DNA of 41,774 bases from Eubacteriales bacterium. GTDB taxonomy: Bacteria > Bacillota > Clostridia > Oscillospirales > QAKW01. Position 1 is the stretch's first letter. Each line of letters opens with the position of its first letter. The notes under the pieces were generated by a model. The model made no database searches and was not told where the DNA came from. It saw only the letters and a program-made list of their open reading frames with translations. Both the position numbers and the translations under genes were made by a program. Of the stretch, positions 1,017 through 33,719 are shown piece by piece. The stretch lies in NCBI GenBank assembly GCA_045586045.1, contig JAZMZQ010000191.1, positions 1 through 41,774 of the forward strand, given 5' to 3'.

Positions 1017-2045
1017 ATGAAGTTTGTGAAATTACTTCCAGGAATAATATTATCTGTGGGAGTTGCAGTTTTTGCATGTTGGATTGAAAGTTTGATGCCC
1101 ATTCATTTGATTGGTGCTGCCGTAATCGCTATGTTTATAGGCATGCTCATCAATCACTTTCTAAAAAATACTAATATTTTTTCGACAGGACTTAAGTTTA
1201 CCTCCAAGAAAATATTGAAATTCGCCATTATATTGCTTGGCTTATCACTTAATATCACAACTATTCTAAAGGTGGGCAAAATGTCTCTCACGGTTATGAT
1301 ATTCACTTTGCTCACTTGTTTTGGCGGCGGATTTTTCATAGGGAAGGCATTAGGACTCAATTGGAAACTTTCCAACCTTATATCTGCTGGTACCGGTATT
1401 TGTGGTGGTTCTGCTATTGCTGCAATTGCACCGACGATTGACGCAGATGATAGTGATGTCGCTTATGCGATGTCTGCAACCTTTCTTTTTGACATGGCGA
1501 TGATTGTACTTTTCCCAATTATGGGCACAGCACTCGGTATGACCGACCAAGCATTCGGTATATGGGCAGGTACTGCAGTGAATGATACATCCTCCGTTGT
1601 TGCAACGGGCTATGCATTTTCTGAAAGTGCGGGCGACTTTGCGACAATGGTTAAACTCACAAGAACACTTGCTATTATTCCTACAGTGATCGTCTTTGCA
1701 TTTATTCAACTAAATATAAAACGCAAAGAGACGCTTGACAATAACCATAATGGAAGTGAACTTAAAACGAAGTTCAGTATCACAAAAATATTTCCTTGGT
1801 TTATTCTTGGATTCCTTGCAATGTCGGTTGTGGCAAGTGTATTTTCTATTCCTGCAGAAATTGTATCGGGAACGAAAACAATAAGTAAGTTCTTAATGGT
1901 ATGTGCCTTGGCAGCTATAGGGCTTAATACATCTTTCTCAAGTATGAAAAAAGCAGGTGTTCGCCCGATGATACATGGCTTTATTATCTCCGCATTGGTT
2001 GTTATAGTGGCGCTTGTTGTTGAAATGGCAATGGGAATTGTTTGA
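1017..2045 (+). CDS. YeiH/UPF0324 family putative sulfate-exporter-type membrane protein
   Basis: Polytopic membrane protein of about 342 aa with the GTGICGGSAIAAIAP motif typical of the YeiH family. GAGG lies 6 nt upstream of the ATG at 1017 (ORF track starts at 1011). Confidence 0.75.
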   Translation: MKFVKLLPGIILSVGVAVFACWIESLMPIHLIGAAVIAMFIGMLINHFLKNTNIFSTGLKFTSKKILKFAIILLGLSLNITTILKVGKMSLTVMIFTLLTCFGGGFFIGKALGLNWKLSNLISAGTGICGGSAIAAIAPTIDADDSDVAYAMSATFLFDMAMIVLFPIMGTALGMTDQAFGIWAGTAVNDTSSVVATGYAFSESAGDFATMVKLTRTLAIIPTVIVFAFIQLNIKRKETLDNNHNGSELKTKFSITKIFPWFILGFLAMSVVASVFSIPAEIVSGTKTISKFLMVCALAAIGLNTSFSSMKKAGVRPMIHGFIISALVVIVALVVEMAMGIV

Positions 2046-2057
2046 AAGGTTTGATAA

Positions 2058-2161
2058 TTTCCCTCTTTTGCGGATAGCACCACAGGCCGCAATTAAAGAA
2101 TCTAAGTAATTAGATTGATCAAGTAAAACGAATCCCCTCGGAGCAATCCGAGGGGATTTTT
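2058..2161 (+). repeat. diverged copy C of the ppdK tail plus terminator
   Basis: Begins TTTCCCTCTTTTGCG after the YeiH-like stop and reads [16 protein letters not shown]. This is followed by AATCCCCTCGGA-GCAA-TCCGAGGGGATT and TTT (2131..2161). Confidence 0.8.
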
Positions 2162-2216
2162 CATTACGCCTGATCAAAAAATCTGTATCTCAAAACCACT
2201 TTGTATCTTAACTCCC

Positions 2217-2244
2217 AAGGGGCGGTAAAAATTTACCGCCCCTT
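2217..2244 (-). terminator. hairpin at the end of the minus-strand dlt-like operon (probable terminator)
   Basis: AAGGGGCGGTAAA / TTTACCGCCCCTT inverted repeat lies 9 nt past the lipoprotein stop. There is no clean T-run. Confidence 0.4.
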
Positions 2245-2252
2245 AATTGAAA

Positions 2253-2750
2253 TTATTCTACAATCGCTTCGTATTGGACCGAGCTAACCGCGCCGTCCGT
2301 CAGGATGATGACAAGCTTGGAATCACCTTTTTTATAGGTATAAGAGTTCTCGCCGTTGAAGCCTTCTGCTCCGTAGGCTTTTTCTACCTCTTCTTTGGTA
2401 GAGCCGATATAGATTCCTTCTTCTGTGGAGACGGTATCGTCTGCAAACCAAAGGGTATAGACATAATCCTTATCATTTTCGGGATAGGTGGTCAGATAAA
2501 AGCCGCCGTAATAATAGGTTTTATCCAGCCCTTCAAAAGCGCAACTGGCCTCTTCCGTATAGGAAACCGGATCGCCCAGTGCGGAAAGGATGGCTGAGGC
2601 CTCTTGATTCATGGCAATCTTCGTCTCTTTTGCGGTGAAGGTATAGCCGAGATCCTTAGGCTCGGAAGAGCCGCCCTCTTCCTTTTCGCCACAGCCTGCA
2701 AGTGTAAAAAGCAGGAGCAACGCAAGCAATAAGCTGATGATTCTTTTCAT
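2253..2750 (-). CDS. lipoprotein, unknown function (last gene of the operon)
   Basis: Lipobox LFTLAGC at the N-terminus. RBS GGAGGAAAAG. Starts 14 nt after the upstream gene. Confidence 0.8.
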   Translation of the reverse strand: MKRIISLLLALLLLFTLAGCGEKEEGGSSEPKDLGYTFTAKETKIAMNQEASAILSALGDPVSYTEEASCAFEGLDKTYYYGGFYLTTYPENDKDYVYTLWFADDTVSTEEGIYIGSTKEEVEKAYGAEGFNGENSYTYKKGDSKLVIILTDGAVSSVQYEAIVE

Positions 2751-2764
2751 TTTCTTTTCCTCCG

Positions 2765-3814
2765 TTAGTTCTGACCCTTTCGGTCATAATAGATTTGGCA
2801 TTTTTTCTCCCAAGCAGCGCTGATCTTTTGATCGGCTCTGCGGTCGGGGAGATCGCAATCCTCTTTGAGAATTTTTCCGAAATAGCGGGAAAGCTTTTCG
2901 GCACCCTTTACATTGAGATGAAGCCCGCGATCATAAGTGTCGGTAGACCAATCGATGCCGATCTCCTCTTGGCAATCCAGCAAATTATAATAGCGAAGAT
3001 CATTTTCTTCGGCATAAGCCTCAATCTGCTCATCCCATTGATCCCACCAGATCGGCGAGAGAGAGGGCGCCTTGATCAGCACAAGCTCTACCCCTTTTTC
3101 TTTGCAAAGGGCAGTCATTTTATCGAGATAATACCAGCTATTCTCCCCAAAACGATAGTCTGCCAAGGGGCGCTCGGCATATTCATCGGTATAGGGCTTT
3201 ACGCCGGTCTGCATGAGATATCCGTTATCGGAAATCTGCTTTTTATGGAAAAGATAGGTGAAATCTTCTTTTGTAAGCTGAGACCAGCGGGAATGATAGC
3301 GAAGGAAGGGGAATAAATAGGTAAACATACTTTCCCGCTCTTTTTCCTCCTCTGTCATGGAAGCCTTTATGGAATTCCATTTGGAGGCAGACCATTTCAT
3401 TCCGTCGAGGGTCATGCGGTTATAGGCCTCCCGCTGCGAAGCTTTTCCGGTGCTTGCAGGGGTATCGTATTTCATGGAAAGGACATTAAACACCATGACC
3501 TTCGGAGTCTCATATTTAAGGGTTTCCTCCATCAGATAATAGGACTGCCAGATCATCTGCTGGGCGCTGCCTCTAATATATGAGGGAATCCCATACTCTT
3601 CATATAAGGTGATGGGCGAGAAATTTTCATAGACCTCGCAATCGCCCACAAAGACAACATCGTTGCCTCCTGCATTGGCATAATATTCGCCAATCAGCGC
3701 CCCTTCCGGAGAGGTCTCCATATATTTAGGGCTGAGCAATGCCTGCAAAAAGATCAGGATTGCAAGGCAGAGAGGCAATACAATGAAATAAAGCTTTGAA
3801 ATTTTCTTTTTCAC
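2765..3814 (-). CDS. membrane-anchored SGNH/DltD-AlgX-like accessory protein partnering the MBOAT
   Basis: GTG start preceded by AGGAGG. N-terminal signal anchor. VVFVGDCEVY resembles block I and YDRGLHLNVKG resembles block V. The gene sits immediately downstream of the MBOAT gene, as dltD does after dltB. The functional assignment is by context. Confidence 0.65.
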   Translation of the reverse strand: MKKKISKLYFIVLPLCLAILIFLQALLSPKYMETSPEGALIGEYYANAGGNDVVFVGDCEVYENFSPITLYEEYGIPSYIRGSAQQMIWQSYYLMEETLKYETPKVMVFNVLSMKYDTPASTGKASQREAYNRMTLDGMKWSASKWNSIKASMTEEEKERESMFTYLFPFLRYHSRWSQLTKEDFTYLFHKKQISDNGYLMQTGVKPYTDEYAERPLADYRFGENSWYYLDKMTALCKEKGVELVLIKAPSLSPIWWDQWDEQIEAYAEENDLRYYNLLDCQEEIGIDWSTDTYDRGLHLNVKGAEKLSRYFGKILKEDCDLPDRRADQKISAAWEKKCQIYYDRKGQN

Positions 3815-3823
3815 GGCTGCCTC

Positions 3824-5389
3824 CTAAAATTGATTATAGATAAAATTGCTTGCATTATAGCCGATGCCGTAGGTCCCCATCAGGAGGACAATCAGCAGCA
3901 AGGCAAAAAGCACAATCGGACGGATGATGGGATGGGCTTGCAGCCATTCTCTGACACTCCCCCGCTTCTCCTGATAAAGGCTTACAGCAAACATCAAGAG
4001 GATTCCGCCGAGCAGGATCAGATAATCTTCTAAGGAAAGGCCCAGCTTCATTAAAGTGCCGTCCCATAAAATGTGGAAATTAAATTCGGTAAAAAGCGAG
4101 CCGATGCGACTGAAATAATCCCCCACATTGGGGAAAAGATCGCAAATGCGGATCAGATTCATCAGGAAAAACATCCGGAGCATTTCAAATCCGCCATACC
4201 ATTTTTTCTCCTTCAGATGGAAGCGGCCATGGAATTTGGCATAAAGGGGCATACATTCTTCGGATAATACGATGAAGAAGCAATTCAGCAATCCCCAAAG
4301 GATAAAATTCGGAGTGATGCCATGCCAAATGCCGGTGCAGCACCATGTGATGATGGAGGCCACATAGACCGGAAGGCGCTTGCCGAAGTTTCCGAATTTT
4401 TTGCGGGCGGATTTGCTCAAGGAAAGCATCGGTTTGCAGACAGAGAGGGGATAGAAGATATAATCCTTCATCCAAACGCTCAAGGTGATATGCCATCTGC
4501 GCCAATATTCGGCAATGTTTTTTGAAAAATAGGGCCGAATAAAGTTTTCGGGGAGTTTGATACCGAGGGCCTGAGAAAGGCCGATGGTGATATCGATTCC
4601 GCCGGTAAAATCTCCATAGATCTGAACGGCATAGAAGATGGTCAGCATCAAAAAAGAAATGCCGGTATATTCCGCTCCTCTGAGGGCGATGACGCCGGCT
4701 GCAATGCGATCGGCAATGACCAGCTTCTTAAAATAGCCCCAAAGCACCCGCTGCAGACCGAAAGAGACTTCCCTTTTATCAAAGGAATGGGGCCCGTAAA
4801 GCTGCGGGGCGACCTGCCCGAATTTGCTGATCGGGCCTTGCACAAGCTGAGGAAAAAAGGATACAAATAAAGCAAAGCGGAAAATATTTTTTTCGGGCTT
4901 TGCAATCCCGCGATAGACATCGACTACATACCCTAAACTCTGGAACATATAAAAAGAGATCCCCAGAGGAAGGGCAAGGGTCAAAAAGCCTAAAGGCCCG
5001 CCCTTTGCCATGGTGCGGAAGGGCTCTGCAAGGCAACCCTTGCAGATAAAGAGGATGATAAAATTGAAAATCAGGCATAAAATAATAAAGACGCGATTTT
5101 TTGCCTTGATTTTCCCTTTATATTCTTTGCGCTCCTCTCGGGAAAGGGTGGCTTTATTTTCGGCAAGATAAGCATCCTGCTTGGCAATATTTTTACCCAT
5201 AAGAAGGGCGGCGGCATAGGTGGAAAGGGTAGTGAATAAAATGAAGCCCAAATATTCCGCACCGGCCCAAAGGTAAAAGACATAGCTGAAGATCAGCAGC
5301 GTGATCCATTGCACCTTTTTGGGGACAAGATAATAAACCACCAAAAGAAGGGCGGCAAACAGCACAAAGCTTACAGAGGTAAATTGCAT
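3824..5389 (-). CDS. MBOAT family O-acyltransferase (DltB/AlgI-like)
   Basis: 521 aa polytopic protein containing WRRWHITLSVWMKDYIFYPL and GIWHG, which are MBOAT hallmark motifs. Its start overlaps the carrier-protein stop (TAATG). Confidence 0.85.
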   Translation of the reverse strand: MQFTSVSFVLFAALLLVVYYLVPKKVQWITLLIFSYVFYLWAGAEYLGFILFTTLSTYAAALLMGKNIAKQDAYLAENKATLSREERKEYKGKIKAKNRVFIILCLIFNFIILFICKGCLAEPFRTMAKGGPLGFLTLALPLGISFYMFQSLGYVVDVYRGIAKPEKNIFRFALFVSFFPQLVQGPISKFGQVAPQLYGPHSFDKREVSFGLQRVLWGYFKKLVIADRIAAGVIALRGAEYTGISFLMLTIFYAVQIYGDFTGGIDITIGLSQALGIKLPENFIRPYFSKNIAEYWRRWHITLSVWMKDYIFYPLSVCKPMLSLSKSARKKFGNFGKRLPVYVASIITWCCTGIWHGITPNFILWGLLNCFFIVLSEECMPLYAKFHGRFHLKEKKWYGGFEMLRMFFLMNLIRICDLFPNVGDYFSRIGSLFTEFNFHILWDGTLMKLGLSLEDYLILLGGILLMFAVSLYQEKRGSVREWLQAHPIIRPIVLFALLLIVLLMGTYGIGYNASNFIYNQF

Positions 5390-5616
5390 TATTCTTCCAT
5401 CAGCCTTTCAATAAGCGCCCAAAGAGCTTTGGCGGAATTGAAGTTTTCCGGCACAAGCTCTTCGGCAGGGATCGCCACATCAAATTCAGAATCGATTTCT
5501 GCTACCAAGGTAACGATATCAAAGGAATCCAAGATCTTTCCGTCGATCAGATCGGTAGCGGTCTCAAAATCCACATCGGGATGAAGCTCTTCGAGTATTT
5601 CAATCAGTTGTTCCAT
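5389..5616 (-). CDS. D-alanyl-carrier-protein-like acyl/aminoacyl carrier protein
   Basis: 75 aa acidic protein with the phosphopantetheine-site motif GKILDSFDIVTLV. Lies 2 nt after the adenylating enzyme gene. Confidence 0.8.
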   Translation of the reverse strand: MEQLIEILEELHPDVDFETATDLIDGKILDSFDIVTLVAEIDSEFDVAIPAEELVPENFNSAKALWALIERLMEE

Positions 5617-5618
5617 AA

Positions 5619-7133
5619 TTATTCTCCTTTATACTTTTGCAAAAGACCTTTGCGGTCTATTTTACCGTTGGGGGTGAAAGGCATGGCCTCCAGCTGCTCA
5701 ATTTTATTGGGCACCATATAGCGGGGCAGCTTTTCTTTTACATAAGCGGCGATCTCTCCGGAGGGAGCCTCGCCCACATAATAAAGCACGATTTTCTTTT
5801 TCTCGTTATCAAAGATGCAGCAAGCGGTGCTGACCTGATCGTGCATATTCACAATGACCTCAATCTCGCCCAGCTCAATGCGATGGCCCATATGCTTGAT
5901 TTGATAATCCTTGCGGGACATAAAGGTCAGCTCGCCTCGATCGTTGAGCTTTCCAAGATCTCCGGTCTTATAAATCAGCTCGGGATAGAGGGAATTCAAC
6001 GGGTTTTGGACAAAGGCCTCAGCGGTTTTTTCAGGATTCTTATAATAGCCTAAGGTAAGGCGTGTCCCCCGAATGCAGATCTCGCCCTGCTCCCCTGCCT
6101 TTGCGAGCGTTCCCTCGTCGGTGAGAAGCAGAATCTCGGTATTGCTGAAGGGGCGGCCGATGGGAAGCGTCTCCTCTTCGGAGAATTCACGGTCCACTTC
6201 ATAATAGCAGCAGATTCCGGTGGTTTCGGTAGGCCCGTAGAGGTTGATAAACCGCGCATTCGGCAGATGGGCCTTCCAGATATTGAATTGCTTGATGGGG
6301 AATACCTCGCTGGCAAAGGCAATGGTATGCAGATAGCGAGGCACCACCTTATCAAAGGTGCGGAAAGCGGAGATCATCGTCAGCGCAGAGACCACCCAGC
6401 AGAGGGTGTTGATTTTATATTCATTTAAGAATTCCACCAGCTTAATGGGGAACATAAACAACTGCTTGGGGATCAGATAGGTGGTAGCCCCGTATTTCAA
6501 GGTGGGGATGATTTCCTTAAGGCAGGCATCAAAATAAAGGGGCGTTTGGTTGCCGAAAACGGAATCCTCATTGAATTTCAGCACCTTGCAAAGCTCTTCG
6601 ATATAATCGATCACAGAGCGGTGGCAAGCCATCACCCCCTTGGGGACGCCGGTGGAGCCGGAGGTGAAGACAATGTAGATCGGATCAATATCCAGCTGCT
6701 TTGCGCGAATCTCGCCAAGGAGCTGCTCGTCCGTCTCGGTATGGCAGATGTCCTCATATTTGAAGATCTCACCCTTGAAATCAAATTCTTTTGCCAAAAG
6801 ATACGTGTCCTCATCGCAGATCATCGCACCCTCATCAAGGCTGCCCAGAATCAGCTCGATGCGATGGCGGGGCATCTCATCGTCCAAAGGAATATAATAA
6901 TTGCCTCCGTAAACCGCACCGAAAAAGGCGGCGATGGTTTTGGGATGCTTCTTCATAAAGACAGAAACAGGCCGCTTATAATATCCCTTTTTGCCGAGAA
7001 AAGAGCCGATGGCTCGCGCTTGGCAGAAGGTTTGGCGGAAGGTGAGAGAATCTGCCTCGTTGGCAAAAGCCACCTTATCGGGCAGGCGGGTAACCGTCTG
7101 TTCAAGATATTCTAAAATGTTTGTCATAATCAT
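5619..7133 (-). CDS. DltA-like amino acid--carrier protein ligase (stand-alone adenylation domain)
   Basis: AMP-binding core motifs FTSGSTGVPKG, LYGPTETT, YKTGD and PNGKIDRK are present. Length is 504 aa. ATGA overlap with the racemase stop. Confidence 0.85.
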   Translation of the reverse strand: MIMTNILEYLEQTVTRLPDKVAFANEADSLTFRQTFCQARAIGSFLGKKGYYKRPVSVFMKKHPKTIAAFFGAVYGGNYYIPLDDEMPRHRIELILGSLDEGAMICDEDTYLLAKEFDFKGEIFKYEDICHTETDEQLLGEIRAKQLDIDPIYIVFTSGSTGVPKGVMACHRSVIDYIEELCKVLKFNEDSVFGNQTPLYFDACLKEIIPTLKYGATTYLIPKQLFMFPIKLVEFLNEYKINTLCWVVSALTMISAFRTFDKVVPRYLHTIAFASEVFPIKQFNIWKAHLPNARFINLYGPTETTGICCYYEVDREFSEEETLPIGRPFSNTEILLLTDEGTLAKAGEQGEICIRGTRLTLGYYKNPEKTAEAFVQNPLNSLYPELIYKTGDLGKLNDRGELTFMSRKDYQIKHMGHRIELGEIEVIVNMHDQVSTACCIFDNEKKKIVLYYVGEAPSGEIAAYVKEKLPRYMVPNKIEQLEAMPFTPNGKIDRKGLLQKYKGE

Positions 7134-7867
7134 ACCTCGGTTATAAGATTGATATATTCCGGCTTAATGGCTTTTTCGCAGCGGACCAAGGATTGCCGCG
7201 CCAAGACCTCCATTGCATCAATGAAGCCGGCGCCGATGGCATAATCCCGTTTGATCAGGGATAGCTCGGTGCAGCCCAGAATGATGGCTTGGGCGCCCTG
7301 CGCACAAAGCTCGTCCCGCACAGCAAAGAAGCGATCCATTTCAGCGGGTTTATTCGCCTTTACATTTTTATAGATCAGATGCATGACATCCGTCTGCCGC
7401 TCCTTTGACGGAACAATCGGCGTGATGCCGGCAGCCTGCAGCTCTTTGGTAAAAAGACCTGAGGTTATGGTCCCGTCTGTGGCCATAATTCCGGCAGCAG
7501 TAATTCCCTGCTCTTTTAAGTGCGCAACCGTCTCCGCAACGCCGCTGATGATGGGCAAGCCGATCCCTTCATTAAGCTGCTTGCAGAAATAATGGGCAGT
7601 GATGCAGGGAATGGCAATGTGGTCTGCTCCCTGCTCTGCCAGCGCACGGCCGATTTGGATCATGGGTGGAAGAGGGCTCTCTTTACTGTGATCTAAGATA
7701 TAGGCTGTCCGATCGGGGATGCGGGGGAAACTGTAGATGATCATATCGAGGTTTTCCTGATCGGTCTCCGCCTCGGTCATCTGAATGATGAGTTCCATGA
7801 AATGGGCGGTGGCAATCGGCCCCAAACCGCCGATAACACCCAAAACTTTTCTATTATTATCAGGCAT
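7130..7867 (-). CDS. aspartate/glutamate-family amino acid racemase
   Basis: GVIGGLGPIATAHF and ILGCTELSL are the two Cys-containing Asp_Glu_race motifs. ATG at 7867 has a GGAGAG RBS and lies 1 nt after the upstream stop (ORF track extends to 7945). Confidence 0.8.
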   Translation of the reverse strand: MPDNNRKVLGVIGGLGPIATAHFMELIIQMTEAETDQENLDMIIYSFPRIPDRTAYILDHSKESPLPPMIQIGRALAEQGADHIAIPCITAHYFCKQLNEGIGLPIISGVAETVAHLKEQGITAAGIMATDGTITSGLFTKELQAAGITPIVPSKERQTDVMHLIYKNVKANKPAEMDRFFAVRDELCAQGAQAIILGCTELSLIKRDYAIGAGFIDAMEVLARQSLVRCEKAIKPEYINLITEV

Positions 7868-7868
7868 T

Positions 7869-8948
7869 TTATCTCTCCGGTGTTGCGGGATAGAGGGATT
7901 TATCCCGATTATGGCATTTATCATGCTGATCGGAATAGGCATCAAGCTCCTCGTCGGTTACCAAGAAAAAGTAATCTCCCTCTCCCTTGCGGGGGGTGGC
8001 ATCAAAATGGTAATAGGTCTTTCCGCCATCTACACTGACAAGGCTCCAATAATGATTGCTGTCTTCCGCGTGGTTTTTAACTTTTTTTACATCAATATTA
8101 GGGATATTAAGGCGCTCAAACATCAGCTTGGTAACAGCAAAATAACCGAAGCAATCGGTCCCGCCGCCCTGCAGCACCTTTTGCGCCTCGCTCAAATAAT
8201 CCTCTTTATTGGATTTTCCCGAATACCAAATGCCGGTATTGGCCCAATTATAGATGGCTTTTACTTTTTCGCGCGTGGTCATTCCGTCGGTCAGTAAGGA
8301 GGCGAGCTTTTTATCTGCAAGCGCATAGACATCGGAAGAAGAGGTTGCAGCCTGCTCCTTTTTCTTTACCGTAACGGTAATGGTTTTTTCCGTCTTATTT
8401 CCTGCTTGATCGGCGGCTGTATAGGTAACGGGGTAGCTTCCTGCTTGGGTAAGATCCACCTTGCTGCTATCGATCGTAAGGGTGGGGGAAGCCGTTTCAT
8501 TATCGGTAACCGTTACGTTTTTTCGGTAAGAGATGGTCTCTCCGATATAAACATTCAGATCGCGAAGACCATTGATTTCGGGGGCAATTTCATCCTTCTG
8601 CAGGACATGGACCAAGATCGTCTTTTTGGCTTGATTGCCTGCCTTATCGGTGGCGGTATAGGTAAGCTCATAGCTTCCCGCTTGGGTAAGATCCACCTTG
8701 CTGCTGTCTACATGGAGAGCGGGGGCTTGATCTTGATTATCGGTAACCGTAATGTTTTCTTGAAAAGAGGCGGGCTCTCCGATATAGACGTCGATATCCT
8801 CTGCGCCCTTGATTTCGGGCGCAACCTTATCTTTGCTCAGGCCGAAAATCAGAAAACTTCCCACAATGCATATAATGATTAAGAGAACCAACGCAAGAGC
8901 GCCCAAGGGGCTGAAGGCAGATCGCTGGTGCTTATAATGTCTGGCCAT
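7869..8948 (-). CDS. membrane-anchored surface protein with two Ig-like repeats and a transglutaminase-like Cys-protease core
   Basis: N-terminal TM helix. Two 79 aa repeats (aa 39-117 and 118-196). C-terminal GGGTDCFGYF ... HYWSLV ... HFDAT resembles a Cys-His-Asp transglutaminase core. Confidence 0.75.
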   Translation of the reverse strand: MARHYKHQRSAFSPLGALALVLLIIICIVGSFLIFGLSKDKVAPEIKGAEDIDVYIGEPASFQENITVTDNQDQAPALHVDSSKVDLTQAGSYELTYTATDKAGNQAKKTILVHVLQKDEIAPEINGLRDLNVYIGETISYRKNVTVTDNETASPTLTIDSSKVDLTQAGSYPVTYTAADQAGNKTEKTITVTVKKKEQAATSSSDVYALADKKLASLLTDGMTTREKVKAIYNWANTGIWYSGKSNKEDYLSEAQKVLQGGGTDCFGYFAVTKLMFERLNIPNIDVKKVKNHAEDSNHYWSLVSVDGGKTYYHFDATPRKGEGDYFFLVTDEELDAYSDQHDKCHNRDKSLYPATPER

Positions 8949-8987
8949 AGTTCCTCCTAAATAATATATATAAATAGGTTACTACTA

Positions 8988-9016
8988 ATAATAAAACATT
9001 GGTCGTAATTTGTCAA
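8988..9016 (-). promoter_or_regulatory. promoter of the dlt-like operon
   Basis: On the minus strand: TTGACA, 17 nt spacer, TATTAT, about 35 nt upstream of the ATG at 8948. Confidence 0.6.
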
Positions 9017-9052
9017 GATCATCGAGCGGGCGGAAGGGGATTCTTTAATATC

Positions 9053-9081
9053 TTGTATTTCAGCAAAAAATTATATATAAT
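9053..9081 (+). promoter_or_regulatory. promoter of the C45 peptidase gene
   Basis: TTGTAT, 17 nt spacer, TATAAT, 24 nt upstream of the ATG at 9105. Confidence 0.55.
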
Positions 9082-9104
9082 GGGAGTGAAACGGAGGGAA
9101 TGGC

Positions 9105-10157
9105 ATGATCAAAGAAATTACGTTGATCGGTACCCCCTTTGAGCGAGGGGTTTTATATGGGGAGGCCTGCAAGGAAGAGATCCGCACCGGTATCGAAAGC
9201 TACAGCCGCCTCTTCGGCGCCCGCGGAATGGATTGGCAGCAGGCGCGGGAGAAAGCTTGCGGTTTTTTGGAGGCTATTCAGAAGGCCGATGCGCGATATA
9301 TGGAGGAAATGAAGGGAATCGCTCAAGGAGCGGCATTGGATTTTGAGGATATCCTCGCCATCAATTGCCGCAGCGAGCTGCTTTATGCGCCCCATGCGCC
9401 CCATGAATGTACGGCTTTTAGTTTAGTGCCGCCTGCCACCAAAGAAGGCAAGGTATTGGCGGGGCAAAATTGGGATTATACCCGCTCCCAGCGGGAGGCC
9501 TTGGTGATTTTGCGTGTTCCCGCTCAAGAGGGAAAGCCCGCCCAGCTTCTCTTTGCAGAGGCGGGCATGATCGGCGGAAAGGGCATGAACAGCGAGGGCC
9601 TTTCCCTGACCCTCAATGCCCTCTCTACTACGGAGTATGCCTATGGCCTACCCCTTCATATTCGGATGCGGCAGATTTTGGAGCAAAAAACCTTTGAGGA
9701 GGCTTATCAGGCGGCCGTTGAAGGGGGGCACCCCTCCCCTGTCCATTGGATCATCACCCATCGGGATGGCCGCGCACTGGGTTTGGAGATCGATTGCAGC
9801 GGAATAGATGAACTGCAGCCTCAAGAGGGCGCCCATTTTCATACCAACCATTTTATCGGCCCGAAATTCGGGAGGCGGGCAACCCCCTCTCCCAACAGCC
9901 TTGCCCGCTTGGAGCGGATAGCCGCTTTGCTGGGGAAAAGAGAGGAACTGACAATAGAGGATGTGAAGAAGGCTCTTGCCGATCATGGAAATCATCCCCA
10001 TTGCATTTGCAAGCATGTAAACCCCAATGCTGCCCGTGATATCATGCACCAAGGGGCCACCAACCATGCGCTGATTATGGATCTTACCGCTGGAAAGGCT
10101 TATTTTGCTTTGGGCAATCCCTGCGAGAGTGAATATCAAATTTTGAAGGTCGAATAA
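9105..10157 (+). CDS. peptidase C45 family (acyl-CoA:6-APA acyltransferase-like Ntn hydrolase)
   Basis: 350 aa. MIKEITLIGTPFERGVLYGE at the N-terminus and HECTAFSL (putative autoprocessing/nucleophile Cys) match the C45 family as I recall it. Confidence 0.7.
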   Translation: MIKEITLIGTPFERGVLYGEACKEEIRTGIESYSRLFGARGMDWQQAREKACGFLEAIQKADARYMEEMKGIAQGAALDFEDILAINCRSELLYAPHAPHECTAFSLVPPATKEGKVLAGQNWDYTRSQREALVILRVPAQEGKPAQLLFAEAGMIGGKGMNSEGLSLTLNALSTTEYAYGLPLHIRMRQILEQKTFEEAYQAAVEGGHPSPVHWIITHRDGRALGLEIDCSGIDELQPQEGAHFHTNHFIGPKFGRRATPSPNSLARLERIAALLGKREELTIEDVKKALADHGNHPHCICKHVNPNAARDIMHQGATNHALIMDLTAGKAYFALGNPCESEYQILKVE

Positions 10158-19818: not shown

Positions 19819-21543
19819 TCAATCAAAAACCTGATCATATTGCAAAATGTGGTAATCTAAAATCCGAGGCTTTTCCTCAGAAAAGAGGGGAAAGCGCTCG
19901 CCCTCCTTATTTTGGCAGAAGATGGGGGAAATGACGGGAAACTCCCCGCGTAATTCTCCCACAAACTGCTGATAAGGGCTTAAAGGAAGGTGCGCTTGTT
20001 CCAAAAGATAGGGCGCCAGATGGTTGGGCGAGAGGATCAGCCCATGCTCCTCTTTCAGATCAAAATTGGCCCAGAGAAAGAAGGGAACTCCATATTTTTC
20101 TTCCGCACTCTCATAGCCGCTTTGGGCGGCTTTGGGAAAGAGGGCGGTATATTCTGCCCCTAAGCTGGGCTGATGATCGCCGAAAAAGAGCAGGATGGTC
20201 TTTCGCTCTTGCTTTTCGAGGGCAGCGATCAGCTCTTGGATAGCTTGATCGCTTTCTTTAAGAAGCTCCAGATACATCTTTGTCTGGGGATATTGCTCCT
20301 GCTGATCAAAGGAAAGGGTATCGGGGACTGAATCAGGGTGTTCGGTATAGCCGCCATGATTTTGCATGGTTACCGCAAAAGCAAAAAGAGGCTCTTTTGA
20401 TTCCTTGAGCAGCTCCCCGATTTTTTGGTAGCAGGCGCGGTCGGTAATATAATCCCGCATCCGCTCAGCATCCTTATCAAAATCCTCAATAGTGAGAAAT
20501 TGATCAAATCCCAAAAGCGGATAAGCACGATTGCGATTCCAGCCGTTGCCCAAAAAGGGATGGATGCCGATCGTTTTATAGCCCAAGTCCTTGAGGCCGC
20601 TTGCGATGGAGGGAGATTCATCATTAACCAACTGCTGCATGGGATAACTGCCTGTCCGCAGCATTTCGCATACATGGGAGGTTAAAAATTCATATTCCGT
20701 ATTGCAGGTGCCGCCGCCAAAGACAGGGGCAATCAGCTTCCCGCTGACCGTATTTTTCTTCTCCTTGAGAGAATGAAAAAAGGAAAGGGGATCTTCCGAG
20801 AGATTTTTTTCTTCCATGGGAAGATCGGCAAAGGCCTCATTCATGATTACAATGATATTGGGCCGCTCCCCTGCTTCCTGCTCCTCTTGATATTCTGCCA
20901 AAAGCCCTTGGGCTTTTTCGGAAGAATAGCCTTTCGGCACTTTGGGCCGAAGGGCTTTCAGATTGATGGCAAAATTCAAAAGATAGCCGTTTTCTTTGGC
21001 GGCATGATTTTGATTCCAATGGTCGATCGTGAAAGGAAAGCGGGCAAGGCCGATGGCAAAAAAGGCAAATAGCCCTGCCGCTGCGGCGAGAGAAACAGCA
21101 GAAAACAGCCGGCGGTTGCGGGGCTTTTTCGGCATCACTTTCCGGATGGCAATCATCAATAGCGCCGCCCCTGCCAAGGAGAGTAAAAGCTCCTTCTTGA
21201 TGGAGAAGGTAAAATTGCCGATGACATTCATGGCCGTCTTGGCCGCCGCAAGATCCCAAGGCAGCAGGGTGGTGCCGCGGAAGGCGATGACATAATGATT
21301 GGCAATGCCGATCGCCAAGAAAAGGGGCAAACCGATCCATCCGCCGATGCGGGGGCCGCAGAGGGCGAAAAGCAGCAAATAGATTCCGCCGATCAGGGCA
21401 AGATTCAAAAGAGCGCTTGTCCAAGTGCGGATGGTAATGTTGCTTTGCAAAAATTCAATAAAGAAAAGGGAGGCAATGGGCAAGAAACCGCCCAAAAGGG
21501 CCGCAAAAAGAGTGTGCGGCTTGATTTTTTTGAAAAATGCCAT
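19819..21543 (-). CDS. LTA synthase family (sulfatase-fold phosphoglycerol transferase) protein
   Basis: N-terminal multi-TM block followed by an extracellular sulfatase domain (IVIMNEAFADL, GGGTCNTEYEFLTS). ATG at 21543 lies 4 nt after the GDPD stop. Confidence 0.8.
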   Translation of the reverse strand: MAFFKKIKPHTLFAALLGGFLPIASLFFIEFLQSNITIRTWTSALLNLALIGGIYLLLFALCGPRIGGWIGLPLFLAIGIANHYVIAFRGTTLLPWDLAAAKTAMNVIGNFTFSIKKELLLSLAGAALLMIAIRKVMPKKPRNRRLFSAVSLAAAAGLFAFFAIGLARFPFTIDHWNQNHAAKENGYLLNFAINLKALRPKVPKGYSSEKAQGLLAEYQEEQEAGERPNIIVIMNEAFADLPMEEKNLSEDPLSFFHSLKEKKNTVSGKLIAPVFGGGTCNTEYEFLTSHVCEMLRTGSYPMQQLVNDESPSIASGLKDLGYKTIGIHPFLGNGWNRNRAYPLLGFDQFLTIEDFDKDAERMRDYITDRACYQKIGELLKESKEPLFAFAVTMQNHGGYTEHPDSVPDTLSFDQQEQYPQTKMYLELLKESDQAIQELIAALEKQERKTILLFFGDHQPSLGAEYTALFPKAAQSGYESAEEKYGVPFFLWANFDLKEEHGLILSPNHLAPYLLEQAHLPLSPYQQFVGELRGEFPVISPIFCQNKEGERFPLFSEEKPRILDYHILQYDQVFD

Positions 21544-21547
21544 GATC

Positions 21548-22363
21548 TTAAAGCTCCATGGATTCAAAGATGGGCGCCGCCTTCAACCGAGCGGCAAGGG
21601 CTGCTGCCTTCTGATCCCGCACCGTCCATAAAAAGAGGGGCGGGCGGAAAAGGGCGCGGCAGAGCCGAAAAGAAAGATTTCGATGGTCTTGATAGCCGTA
21701 GGCGACAAAATGAGGCCTGCTCAGCACATGGACCAGCAGATTGGAGAGGGCAAAATCGGTAAGGGGCGAAACCTTCGCTCCATCCTTGCGCACATGGGAG
21801 GCAAGCTGCCCTCTGATGATATGGGGCGCATTTTTTCTGAGCCAATAAAGGGGGCGTGGGTCAAAGGATTCGATGCAATAGAGCCCTTGATAGCCCTTGA
21901 GCATCTCAGCCAAAGCCTTGGCAAGGCGCGTATGGCTTCCCTTTGCCACCTTGGCTTCAATCAGCAGAGGAACTCTGCCGTCGATCAGCGCCAAGACCTC
22001 GCTCAAGAGGGGAAGCCGCTCTTCGGTGCCCTCCAGCCGAAGGTCTTTGAGGGCAGACCAATCATGTTCCTCAATGGTAAGAGGAGAGGAGCAGGTCCGC
22101 TCCAGCGTATCATCATGCTCCACCACCAAAGCGCCGTCCTTGCTGATATGCACGTCCAGCTCAATGGCGTAGCCCTTCTCTGCGGCCAAGGAAAAGGCCA
22201 TAAGAGAATTTTCGGGGATCCCTTTTTGAATGTCATGAAGCCCCCGATGGGCATATTTTTTCGATTTTAATAGTTGAAGCTCCTCCGAGGCGTTTGCGGC
22301 GGGGGCAATCAGAAAAATCCAGAGGATGAAAATGAAGAAAAGAAGAAGGATCAGCCAAACCAT
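21548..22363 (-). CDS. membrane-anchored glycerophosphodiester phosphodiesterase
   Basis: HRGLHD..ENSLMAF..ELDVHISKDGALVVEHD are GDPD motifs. N-terminal TM helix. RBS GGAGGAGG. Confidence 0.85.
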   Translation of the reverse strand: MVWLILLLFFIFILWIFLIAPAANASEELQLLKSKKYAHRGLHDIQKGIPENSLMAFSLAAEKGYAIELDVHISKDGALVVEHDDTLERTCSSPLTIEEHDWSALKDLRLEGTEERLPLLSEVLALIDGRVPLLIEAKVAKGSHTRLAKALAEMLKGYQGLYCIESFDPRPLYWLRKNAPHIIRGQLASHVRKDGAKVSPLTDFALSNLLVHVLSRPHFVAYGYQDHRNLSFRLCRALFRPPLFLWTVRDQKAAALAARLKAAPIFESMEL

Positions 22364-22366
22364 CGC

Positions 22367-23620
22367 TTAATCCTCCTCCCCGAAAAGCTCCAGCGCGCTT
22401 TGGGGCAGATCGGGGCGGTTATCCCCGTGGCGCACAAAGGTCATGGTGATAAAGGCCAGCGCCGAGAAAATCAAAGCATAAGGGAAAAGCACCCGATATC
22501 CAAAGGGCAGATAGGTAAAGAGATAGCCGGAGAGGATGGGGGTGAGGATTTGGGCCGACATGGAGAAGGTATAATAAAGGCCGGTATATTTGCCCACATC
22601 GCTTCCCTTGCTCATCTCCACCACCATGGGATAGGAGTTGACGTTGATGGAGGCCCAGCCGATGCCGATGGCGCCCATGATCAGATAGGCGGCGATGCTA
22701 TAGCCGGGCAGCAGGAAGCCGGCAAAAAAGGCGCAGGCCATCAAGGCCACTCCGCCCAGAATGACCTTTTTACGGCCGATCTTTGCAGAAAGCTGGCCCA
22801 CCGGCAGATAGCTGGCGGTAGCCACCAGCATGGCGATGATCATCATGGTGGAGCCCACGCTCTCGCTTCTTCCCCATACATCCTGCACATAGCGGGAATA
22901 GGCGGTTTCCACAGCGTTATAAGCCATAAACCACAAGAAGACCGAAAGGAGGATAAAGATCAAGCTCTTGCGGACCTCTTTGGGCATCTTTCCGCCCGCT
23001 TCTTTTTGCGTGTTCTCCGGCTCAGGGGGCATCTCTGCCACCAATTTATTTTCATGAACGCCAAACATCAGAATGATGGCGCAGGTAACCATAAAGCCTG
23101 CCACAATGGAGAAGATGGTGGTATAGCTTTGGGCGAAGAACGAAATCACCAAATGGGTGATGATTCCGCCTAAGGCGCCCATCAGGTTGATGACAGCGTT
23201 GCCCTTACTGCGCAAAGGCTTAGGGGTTACATCCGGCATCAGCGCCACCGCAGGCGAGCGGTAGGAGCTCAATACAATCAGCAGCACCGCCAGCGCCACC
23301 ACAAAGAGGGTGAGATTTTTTTGAGCATCGGCCAAGGGGATCAAAAACATCAGCCCTGCCGCCAAAAAAGAGCCCACAATGATGAAGGGCTTGCGCCGCC
23401 CGAAGGGGGTATGGACCCGATCGGAGAGGGCGCCGAAAAGGGGGAGCAGAAATACCGCCAAGATATTATCTGCCGCCATCACATAGCCGCTCACCGCATC
23501 GGTAACCCCAAAGGTATTTTTCAAAATCAGAGGAATAATATAATTGTAAAGCTGCCAGAAGCTGCTGATGGACATAAAGGCAAGCCCCACCAGCACCGTT
23601 CTCTTATAATTCAGTTTCAT
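22367..23620 (-). CDS. MFS transporter
   Basis: 417 aa, about 12 TM segments. GALSDRVHTPFGRRKPF loop motif. Confidence 0.8.
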   Translation of the reverse strand: MKLNYKRTVLVGLAFMSISSFWQLYNYIIPLILKNTFGVTDAVSGYVMAADNILAVFLLPLFGALSDRVHTPFGRRKPFIIVGSFLAAGLMFLIPLADAQKNLTLFVVALAVLLIVLSSYRSPAVALMPDVTPKPLRSKGNAVINLMGALGGIITHLVISFFAQSYTTIFSIVAGFMVTCAIILMFGVHENKLVAEMPPEPENTQKEAGGKMPKEVRKSLIFILLSVFLWFMAYNAVETAYSRYVQDVWGRSESVGSTMMIIAMLVATASYLPVGQLSAKIGRKKVILGGVALMACAFFAGFLLPGYSIAAYLIMGAIGIGWASINVNSYPMVVEMSKGSDVGKYTGLYYTFSMSAQILTPILSGYLFTYLPFGYRVLFPYALIFSALAFITMTFVRHGDNRPDLPQSALELFGEED

Positions 23621-33630: not shown

Positions 33631-33719
33631 TGGTGCCGGTGACCGGGATCGAACCGGTACGGGTATCGCTACCCACGGGATTTTAAGTCCCGGGCGTCTG
33701 CCAGTTCCGCCACACCGGC
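33631..33719 (-). tRNA. tRNA-Leu (anticodon UAA), CCA encoded
   Basis: The reverse complement GCCGGTG-TG-GCGGAACTGGCAGACGC-CGGGA-CTTAAAA-TCCCG-long variable arm-ACCGG-TTCGATC-CCGGT-CACCGGC-ACCA folds as a class II cloverleaf. Confidence 0.95.

Follow-up and report, generated by a model that had tools for sequence, protein, structure and literature searches.

What does a bacterium attach to its envelope with a gene set that recalls the dlt operon in its core enzymes and departs from it in several respects? The question is raised by a seven-gene cassette on contig JAZMZQ010000191.1 of a Eubacteriales bacterium (assembly GCA_045586045.1), whose 41,774 nucleotides (nt) are referred to here as the window. 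The seven open reading frames (ORFs) are arranged in tandem on the minus strand (8948..2253), to which all cassette coordinates below refer, and encode, from 5' to 3', a membrane-anchored surface protein with a transglutaminase-like (TGase-like) domain, a racemase, an adenylating enzyme (A), a small carrier protein (C), an MBOAT (B), an SGNH-fold protein (D) and a lipoprotein. An earlier reading of the letters alone, hereafter the first-pass annotation, had described a dlt-like core in the order A-C-B-D with added genes, and had given the junctions as 1 nt, a 4-nt ATGA overlap, 2 nt, a 1-nt TAATG overlap, 9 nt and 14 nt. The ORF list agrees exactly on both counts, and the gene order is kept across 80 related loci, which makes the arrangement more than chance. 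The answer we favor, and hold to be probable rather than firm, is that the cassette encodes a self-contained system for aminoacylation of the envelope, which follows the Dlt/MBOAT-SGNH principle and is specialized for an acidic D-amino acid, most likely D-aspartate (D-Asp).

The first step is to ask whether the seven genes form a unit in their own right. A scan of one genome per GTDB species returned at least 573 stretches with a relative of the adenylating enzyme. Synteny was assessed in the best 80 of these at least 573 loci by A-protein similarity (63-90% identity), and a gene was scored as absent only if the contig reached far enough to have held it. The TGase-like gene was present in 74/74 assessable loci, the racemase gene in 71/80, the carrier gene in 76/80, the MBOAT gene in 69/70, the SGNH gene in 60/62 and the lipoprotein gene in 57/60; the complete seven-gene set was found in 50 of 55. 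Thus the linkage of the racemase and TGase-like genes to the A-C-B-D core, on which the first-pass annotation had staked its reading, extends over several orders of Clostridia. The carriers comprise Acutalibacteraceae (90% identity), Faecousia and other Oscillospiraceae, Agathobacter and other Lachnospiraceae, Clostridiaceae and Anaerotignum, together with an isolate, Cuneatibacter sp. NSJ-177, and a single bin that bears the label Treponemataceae. The locus of that bin (L050) holds a full cassette with an A enzyme 65% identical, and is either a binning error or a horizontal transfer out of Clostridia. Conserved flanking genes were sought as a possible clue to the acceptor, and none was common to more than 6 of the 80 loci. 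The cassette therefore sits in diverse housekeeping contexts without an acceptor-synthesis gene of its own, and is a conserved autonomous unit. In metagenomic collections, the adenylating-enzyme and SGNH families each form thousands of clusters. Three loci (L054, L063 and L073) have neither racemase nor carrier gene and show the order TGase-like, A, MBOAT, SGNH and sometimes lipoprotein, with the A-domain code described below unchanged; either their carrier is encoded elsewhere, or these variants operate differently.

The adenylating enzyme (5619..7133, 504 amino acids (aa)) is a stand-alone protein of the nonribosomal peptide synthetase (NRPS) type, with AMP-binding (PF00501, 199.9 bits) and AMP-binding_C domains. 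Both DltA models are missed: the equivalog TIGR01734, with a cutoff of 559.85, gives 276.0 bits, and the subfamily model NF003417, with a cutoff of 476, gives 291.6 bits. The generic NRPS adenylation model TIGR01733 gives 305.1 bits, slightly below its cutoff of 317.4 and yet above both DltA-model scores. Among solved structures the enzyme matches GrsA with 224 bits and every DltA with at most 197 bits. By these profile and structure-sequence scores it appears to lie outside DltA, in line with the first-pass reading. The carrier protein (5389..5616, 75 aa) passes only the generic PP-binding model (21.4 bits, cutoff 20.8) and remains below the cutoffs of the DltC models NF003464 (35.5 bits, cutoff 68) and TIGR01688 (23.2 bits, cutoff 52.35). 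Its phosphopantetheine site, Ser31 (5524-5526), lies inside an invariant D-S-F-D-I and is present in 76/76 sequences.

The substrate pocket of the adenylating enzyme is equally distinct. The ten Stachelhaus positions were located via the A4, A5 and adjacent motifs, and the mapping was checked internally on a GrsA segment, for which it returned the published code DAWTIAAICK. The window enzyme reads DAKCAALGIK, and the 81 family sequences read DAKC-A-(G/A)-L-G-(M/I/V)-K, with D235, A236, K239, C278, L322, G330 and K517 invariant or nearly so. Asp202 (position 235) is found in 80/81 and Lys491 (position 517) in 81/81 sequences, and the presence of this pair indicates an alpha-amino acid substrate. 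Lys206 (position 239; 6516-6518) is specific to this clade, the sister cassettes considered below having Ile or Leu there. In NRPS domains, charged side chains are read by a residue of opposite charge at position 239 (Lys for Glu; Glu or Asp for Lys or Arg). Position 301, the site of the Cys that gives DltA its enantioselectivity, is Ala or Gly in the cassette family.

Which amino acid is loaded? The racemase (7130..7867, 245 aa, ATG start) is a pyridoxal phosphate-independent two-Cys enzyme. Its assignment to the Asp/Glu family at first pass is borne out by PF01177 (Asp_Glu_race, 139.4 bits against a cutoff of 31, E 1.8e-40) and refined to the aspartate-racemase subfamily by TIGR00035 (208.2 bits against 93.1). 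Cys88 (7604-7606), Cys199 (7271-7273), Arg53 and Lys170, the latter two being equivalents of Arg48 and Lys164, are invariant in 72/72 racemase sequences. The top solved relative is the Pyrococcus horikoshii aspartate racemase 1JFL (E 4.8e-49), and glutamate-racemase models score below 20 bits. Together, an Asp-type racemase and the pocket code DAKCAALGIK argue against D-alanine (D-Ala) as the cargo; a small acidic D-amino acid is suggested instead, with D-Asp the best guess.

Some other small acidic or polar amino acid, such as D-glutamate (D-Glu) or either enantiomer of cysteate, might be carried by the same machinery, with a racemase perhaps as broad as RacX or YgeA. We judge this rather unlikely. 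Lys at position 239 is typical of Glu-activating, not Asp-activating, NRPS domains, and the loci without a racemase keep the pocket code, which would fit a universally made D-amino acid such as D-Glu from MurI; at any rate, the D-amino acid must come from elsewhere in those genomes. For D-Glu, however, a dedicated racemase would be redundant, and the closeness to a bona fide aspartate racemase, combined with the low glutamate-racemase scores, speaks against any of these cargoes. As for cysteate, the racemase narrowly clears the cutoff of the cysteate-racemase model CuyB (NF052483, 202.8 bits against 190), and CuyB itself is an aspartate-racemase-family enzyme, recognized through its link to the sulfo-lyase CuyA (PMC11193023). 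A CuyA sulfo-lyase or sulfonate context was nevertheless found neither among the scanned window ORFs nor in the flanks of related loci. Cysteate catabolism was rejected on this account, and also because the racemase stop codon overlaps the start of the adenylating-enzyme gene (ATGA) and nothing catabolic.

The MBOAT (3824..5389, 521 aa; PF03062, E 2.4e-18) consists of a DltB-like core and a C-terminal extension of ~108 aa. Its catalytic His300 (4490-4492) lies in WRRWH and is conserved among homologues; the DltB structures 8JEM and 6BUG match residues 137-380 (E 1e-23), and the DltB model TIGR04091 gives 143.6 bits against a cutoff of 375. The DltB-homologous core ends near residue 413 and is followed by hydrophobic segments at 449-474 and 482-513 and then by a terminal F-I-Y-N-Q-F (3827..3844, with Tyr518 at 3836-3838), which is an acyl-shuttle motif of the FxYxxF type. 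F-I-Y-x-x-F stands at the C-terminus of 69/69 complete MBOAT homologues. In Dlt systems, DltB moves D-Ala from DltC to the Tyr in the C-terminal FxYxxF acyl-shuttle motif of a microprotein, DltX, whereas the other MBOAT/SGNH pathways, such as PatAB, have neither carrier nor DltX and bear the motif at the MBOAT's own C-terminal end, along with two extra transmembrane (TM) helices (PMC12148441). The lack of a dltX-sized ORF had already been remarked upon at first pass. A search for a hidden dltX micro-ORF in 1900-9400 likewise found none, the sole FxYxxF abutting a stop codon there being the MBOAT C-terminus. The missing dltX is thus explained, since the MBOAT carries a fused motif of the DltX/PatA type, the function of which has been worked out in DltX and PatA (PMC12148441). 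A carrier-protein donor combined with a fused shuttle motif is a mix of two classes kept separate in the 2025 account, and does not fit its division (PMC12148441).

The sixth gene encodes an N-terminally anchored protein of 349 aa (2765..3814) that had been described as SGNH/DltD-like. Profile searches identified the domains of genes 1-5, and for this protein gave only a sub-threshold GDSL match; its SGNH identity comes from the fold. The AlphaFold2 model (predicted template modelling score (pTM) 0.76; mean predicted local distance difference test score (pLDDT) 74) was assigned by Foldseek to the SGNH hydrolases with probability 1.0, and among the fold matches, which also include PatB, DltD (6PFX/3BMA) gave the longest alignments and highest identity. 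The likeness to DltD therefore stands at the level of the fold and not at that of sequence, where a PDB search with the SGNH family profile found no link to DltD. Cys59 (3638-3640) lies in G-D-C-E right after the first beta-strand, and Asp295 (2930-2932) and His299 (2918-2920) lie in D-x-G-L-H-L-N; Cys59 and the latter motif are invariant in 61/61 locus sequences and 30/30 database sequences.

A search of 1.84 billion representatives yielded 6,425 clusters related to the SGNH protein, and the alignment covered 120 entries with a length of 300 residues or more, namely the window protein plus 119 representatives. The Cys59 column is Ser in 89/120 of these (G-S-S, G-N-S or G-D-S) and Cys in 30/120 (29 representative clusters and the window protein), the listed ones with G-D-C-E, while the Asp/His/Asn motif is common to the Ser-type and Cys-type groups. 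Since Cys59 stands in the Ser column of the wider family, it occupies the position of the catalytic nucleophile. The Ser-to-Cys change appears to be derived in this clade, and Cys59, His299 and Asp295 are predicted to form the catalytic site.

With the four core proteins described, one alternative can be weighed, namely that the cassette is a divergent but ordinary dlt operon of Clostridia that loads D-Ala onto lipoteichoic acid. The Dlt models are the top-scoring named models for the A, C and B proteins; furthermore, no solved structure other than DltB is related to the MBOAT in sequence, the SGNH protein has DltD among its fold matches, and an LtaS-type gene is found in the same window. All four Dlt equivalog or subfamily cutoffs are missed widely, however; Lys239 is invariant, with no Cys at 301; the linked enzyme is an Asp-type rather than an alanine racemase; and DltX is missing, with its motif fused to the MBOAT, the nucleophile being Cys and the gene order A-C-B-D. 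A canonical dlt operon was rejected on these grounds, and we consider a divergent one very improbable.

Two further genes of the cassette encode extracytoplasmic proteins with no counterpart in the core. The TGase-like protein (7869..8948, 359 aa) has an N-terminal TM helix, two Ig-like domains (two Bact_surface_Ig-like repeats in Pfam) and a TGase-like domain (Transglut_core, PF01841, 31.1 bits, cutoff 23). The triad Cys266 (8151-8153), His299 (8052-8054) and Asp316 (8001-8003) is invariant in 77/77 sequences. The AlphaFold2 model (mean pLDDT 87.5) shows the TM helix, the two Ig-like domains and an alpha/beta catalytic domain, for which Foldseek returned the Streptococcus pyogenes TglA (9CRN) and a TGase-like putative cysteine protease (3ISR). 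The lipoprotein (2253..2750, 165 aa) has two invariant Cys residues, Cys20 (2691-2693) in the lipobox and Cys70 (2541-2543) within S-C-A-F-x-G, and belongs to no assigned family; in family searches, weak DUF7738 matches were obtained for 13/39 members. A sequence search of the PDB gave no match for the TGase-like catalytic domain and none for the lipoprotein.

Natural fusions tie these two proteins to the SGNH protein. One chain unites SGNH, Ig-like and Transglut_core domains in both P0366 (Cys-type, 587 aa) and P0412 (Ser-type, 610 aa), where the added domains exceed the Pfam cutoffs and match the profile of the cassette TGase-like family with E 3e-69 and 5e-80, respectively. Five other proteins (P0361, P0363, P0364, P0370 and P0375), all of which are Cys-type SGNH proteins, carry a lipoprotein-family domain at the C-terminus (E 2.5e-22 to 3.9e-58), mostly without the signal peptide. 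These fusions imply that the SGNH protein, the TGase-like protein and the lipoprotein form one extracytoplasmic module, and thereby strengthen the suggestion of the first-pass annotation that the latter two are extracellular partners. They also largely refute the view that the TGase-like and lipoprotein genes are passengers that merely share a transcript with the A-C-B-D core, a view for which one could cite the sister cassettes, in which the four-gene core stands alone. The two genes are moreover present in 74/74 and 57/60 loci with their catalytic or invariant Cys conserved, and the TGase-like gene remains linked even after relocation to the 3' end of the cassette (L040) and in a divergent cluster (L088). 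We give the passenger view hardly any credence.

The divergent cluster L088 (1-10917) places TGase-like, Asp-type racemase, Cys-type SGNH and MBOAT genes around a LysM-G5-M23 peptidase gene, and also holds two unannotated ORFs (345 and 200 aa), a serine/threonine kinase and a TPR-like protein; no AMP-binding or carrier gene was called in it. Its M23 peptidase hints at a peptidoglycan connection. In at least 10 loci, a further membrane-anchored ORF stands between the TGase-like gene and the racemase gene. The one in L022 ends like the TGase-like protein, and these inserted ORFs may be tandem paralogues of the TGase-like gene. At the extreme C-terminus of the TGase-like protein, R348, L352, Y353, P354, T356 and P357 (..R...LYP.TP.., residues 348-357; window 7869-7910, minus strand) are invariant in a 30-sequence alignment. 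A conserved Tyr so close to the C-terminus recalls the shuttle motifs, but nothing supports such a reading.

The sister cassettes place the core in a broader context. Ser-type relatives of the SGNH protein are found in cassettes of the same order, with A, a 75-aa carrier, an MBOAT of ~530 aa and SGNH (L082, L084/L085 and L087), and with no racemase, TGase-like or lipoprotein gene. Their MBOATs end in FxYxxF and their carriers have the same DSFDI...PENFNSAKA signature as those of the cassette. The cassette thus seems to belong to a wider family of A-C-B-D systems. The pocket of L082 (4623-10294) reads DAIRIGIGVK, with Arg at 278, and in both L082 and L089 (970-3248) a radical-SAM gene follows the SGNH gene. 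The product in L082 scores 611 bits on the glutamate 2,3-aminomutase model TIGR04368 (cutoff 650) versus 441 bits for lysine 2,3-aminomutase, and L082 and L089 may represent a beta-glutamate-loading relative. A basic pocket residue is therefore paired with a supplier of an acidic amino acid twice, as Lys239 with the racemase and as Arg278 with the L082 aminomutase, and two independent pairings support the view that Lys239 helps to determine the substrate and that the linked enzyme provides the cargo. In contrast, L084 (1671-6349) and L087 (3636-8044) have the code SMLYLALDIK, which is without the alpha-amine-binding Asp235 and suggests a cargo other than an alpha-amino acid.

Two side observations concern these relatives. 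L084 has a 67-aa ORF ahead of a shorter MBOAT (466 aa), and this ORF resembles a detached MBOAT N-terminus. The closest relative of the A enzyme in the plasmid collection (37% identity) is in L081 (Paenibacillus cellulosilyticus NZ_CP054613.1, 1716676-1736187), next to SDR, aminoglycoside-N-acetyltransferase-like, GNAT, carrier, KAS III-like and metallo-beta-lactamase-fold genes and without an MBOAT; it is a different carrier-dependent cluster. The remaining plasmid-collection matches to the A enzyme are NRPS modules.

How might the seven products act together? With the domain identities, the invariant catalytic residues, the fused motif, the Ser-to-Cys swap, the synteny and the fusions as a foundation, we infer the order and direction of the transfers as follows. 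In the cytoplasm, the two-Cys racemase would convert the L- to the D-amino acid. The A enzyme would then form the aminoacyl-AMP, with Asp235 and Lys517 holding the alpha-amino and carboxyl groups and Lys239 pairing with the acidic side chain, and would load the aminoacyl group as a thioester on the Ser31-phosphopantetheine of the 75-aa carrier. His300 of the MBOAT would move the group across the membrane to the protein's own Tyr518 at the outer face, where FIYNQF replaces DltX. From there the anchored SGNH protein would accept it in thioester linkage to Cys59, its catalytic site being completed by His299 and Asp295. Finally, the module of SGNH protein, TGase-like Cys-His-Asp enzyme and lipoprotein would deliver the group to an envelope acceptor, through a bond that could be an ester, as supposed at first pass, or an amide.

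Several observations weigh against this proposal. The logic of the specificity code was derived from NRPS domains for L-amino acids. Because the CuyB model also passes, the cargo may instead be cysteate or another small acidic amino acid. Nine of the 80 loci have no racemase with the pocket code unchanged, and three of these nine also have no carrier gene; moreover, the 80 loci were picked by A-protein similarity and sample one clade. The model of the SGNH protein is of moderate quality (mean pLDDT 74). As for the extracytoplasmic module, the TGase fusion P0412 is Ser-type, so that a TGase-like domain does not always go with a Cys nucleophile, and some of the SGNH-lipoprotein fusions may reflect read-through between neighboring genes rather than true fusions, P0363 in particular aligning from position 2 of the lipoprotein profile, signal peptide included.

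The nature of the acceptor is the next question. Since the cassette has no acceptor-synthesis gene and its flanks vary, the acceptor is expected to be ubiquitous, be it peptidoglycan, a teichoic-type polymer or a membrane lipid. Thioesters and enzymes of the transglutaminase/papain fold typically favor transfer to amines, and the thiol chemistry of the cassette thus leans toward an amine acceptor and makes an amide product plausible, for instance on a peptidoglycan amine. The TGase-like enzyme may equally well be an eraser or a second-step transacylase, by analogy with FmtA. The organisms that carry the cassette all seem to be anaerobic members of Clostridia, for which exposed catalytic thiols pose less of a problem; this agrees with the proposal without being evidence for it. 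Elsewhere in the window (19819-23620, minus strand), an LtaS-type membrane protein with a sulfatase domain (582 aa), a glycerophosphodiester phosphodiesterase (271 aa) and a major facilitator superfamily transporter (417 aa) are encoded by three successive genes. The host thus probably makes a glycerophosphate-type polymer, one candidate acceptor; the trio is 11 kb from the cassette and is unlinked to it in the other loci.

A different destination would follow if the cassette made a small molecule, aminoacylated an outer-leaflet lipid or glycolipid, or released a conjugate, with the TGase-like protein as a hydrolase or eraser. Stand-alone pairs of A enzyme and carrier are a typical mark of NRPS-like pathways to small molecules, the cassette has no linked gene for polymer synthesis, and MBOAT-SGNH systems often have an esterase partner (Ape1, PMC12148441; DltE and FmtA, PMC13653941, PMC12505958). 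In every characterized case, on the other hand, a fused FxYxxF with an anchored SGNH protein marks the acylation of an envelope polymer (PMC12148441), and the Ig-like repeats and the membrane and lipid anchors put all three partners at the cell surface. On balance we think such a product improbable.

Within the preferred reading of an envelope-aminoacylation system, a bolder version can be formulated, which we offer as speculation and do not expect to hold in full. The cargo might pass along a relay from carrier-S to Tyr-O on the MBOAT tail, to Cys-S on the SGNH protein, to Cys-S on the TGase-like enzyme and into an extracytoplasmic amide (isopeptide), all within a modular A-C-B-D family that decorates the envelopes of Clostridia. 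If so, D-Asp could, for example, end up on a surface protein or, in mature peptidoglycan, on the epsilon-amino group of Lys or diaminopimelate, and a peptide branch would be built on the wall after export, powered by cytoplasmic ATP. The A-C-B-D family would then put varied non-proteinogenic amino acids on envelopes, with D-Asp here and beta-glutamate in the aminomutase-linked sister.

The single TTGACA-17-TATTAT promoter named at first pass is present as a sigma-70-type site (8988..9016, minus strand; ~40 nt 5' of the first start codon) that matches the consensus at 11/12 positions and is the top-scoring site within 1900-9300. Promoter-like sites in the region number 10 versus 10.5 expected from shuffles and are thus not enriched; the site is a promoter candidate by consensus match, and the driving role ascribed to it has the same basis. 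Beyond the last gene, pattern matching found a terminator-like hairpin with a 12-bp stem and 7 G-C pairs, followed by CGTTTTACTT (2131..2158, minus strand), and a second G+C-rich hairpin without a T-run (~2219-2242). An Rfam search of the cassette gave no riboswitch or other RNA leader or element, and the sole RNA gene detected in the window is a tRNA-Leu (anticodon TAA; 33631-33719, minus strand). Divergent from the cassette promoter lies a gene of the acyl-CoA:6-aminopenicillanic acid acyltransferase/peptidase C45 family (PF03417; 9105-10157, plus strand), which is not kept beside the cassette in other loci.

Surface charge, resistance to antimicrobial peptides and interaction with the host all depend centrally on Dlt D-alanylation in Gram-positive bacteria. 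Much of the gut Clostridia may possess a parallel machine that probably installs another amino acid; at least 573 GTDB species representatives, Agathobacter, Faecousia and Lachnospiraceae among them, have a relative of the A enzyme. If the product is a wall decoration with D-Asp or another amino acid, it would constitute a new microbe-associated structure in abundant commensals, and the pathway would be a new example of energy-coupled chemistry beyond the membrane. The cassette also offers a natural Ser-to-Cys switch in an SGNH acyltransferase and the recruitment of a transglutaminase-fold enzyme, in proteins that are tractable, being small, soluble or singly anchored, with their catalytic residues pinpointed.

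It remains to place the cassette among known systems. Full-text literature searches returned no description of it, a null result that is not proof of novelty. As in Dlt (DltX, A, B, C and D), the cassette combines ATP-dependent adenylation onto a small phosphopantetheinyl carrier with a DltB-like MBOAT (His in W-x-x-W-H), an FxYxxF Tyr shuttle and a membrane-anchored SGNH-fold partner. Unlike Dlt, it misses all Dlt model cutoffs, has Lys239 in its pocket and Cys rather than the Ser of DltD at the nucleophile position, and fuses to the MBOAT the shuttle motif that Dlt keeps on a separate microprotein; its order is A-C-B-D, and it further includes a dedicated racemase of the Asp type, an ectoenzyme resembling transglutaminases and a lipoprotein.

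A link between an aspartate racemase gene and an installer of cell-wall D-Asp is also known from Enterococcus faecium, where Aslfm and Racfm reportedly form the D-aspartate branch of the peptidoglycan (as Bellais et al. are said to have described in 2006). Aslfm is a cytoplasmic ATP-grasp ligase that acts on UDP-MurNAc-pentapeptide, whereas the cassette has NRPS-type activation and would route the transfer through the membrane. In having an additional surface enzyme that would act downstream of the core, the cassette resembles the systems with FmtA and with the DltE of Lactiplantibacillus plantarum. Those two belong to the serine esterases of the penicillin-binding-protein type; the accessory enzyme of the cassette, in contrast, shows a transglutaminase/papain-like fold with Cys-His-Asp, and some genomes encode it as a fusion with the SGNH protein. 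In Staphylococcus aureus, FmtA is needed for D-Ala to reach wall teichoic acid (PMC12505958).

The closest architectural parallels are PatA/PatB of peptidoglycan O-acetylation, AlgI/AlgJ/AlgX and WssH/WssI, in which FxYxxF stands at the MBOAT's own C-terminus, preceded by extra TM segments, and a separate extracytoplasmic SGNH-fold protein serves as the transferase (PMC12148441). The cassette shows the corresponding features, with the conserved His300, a C-terminal FIYxxF in 69/69 homologues and two preceding hydrophobic segments, and its SGNH partner has the fold and the Asp295/His299 motif of that class, with Cys where that class has Ser. The acyltransferases named above differ in that they use acetyl-CoA and a Ser-His-Asp triad and have no adenylating enzyme or carrier. 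Indeed, MBOAT/SGNH pathways other than Dlt are stated to have no carrier protein (PMC12148441), and the cassette, with a carrier gene in 76/80 loci, is an exception to that statement. It breaks the division between a carrier donor with a separate DltX and an acyl-CoA donor with a fused motif, and thus lies outside the definitions of both the Dlt and the acyl-CoA MBOAT-SGNH classes, joining a Dlt-like cytoplasmic half to an MBOAT architecture like that of PatAB and AlgIJ.

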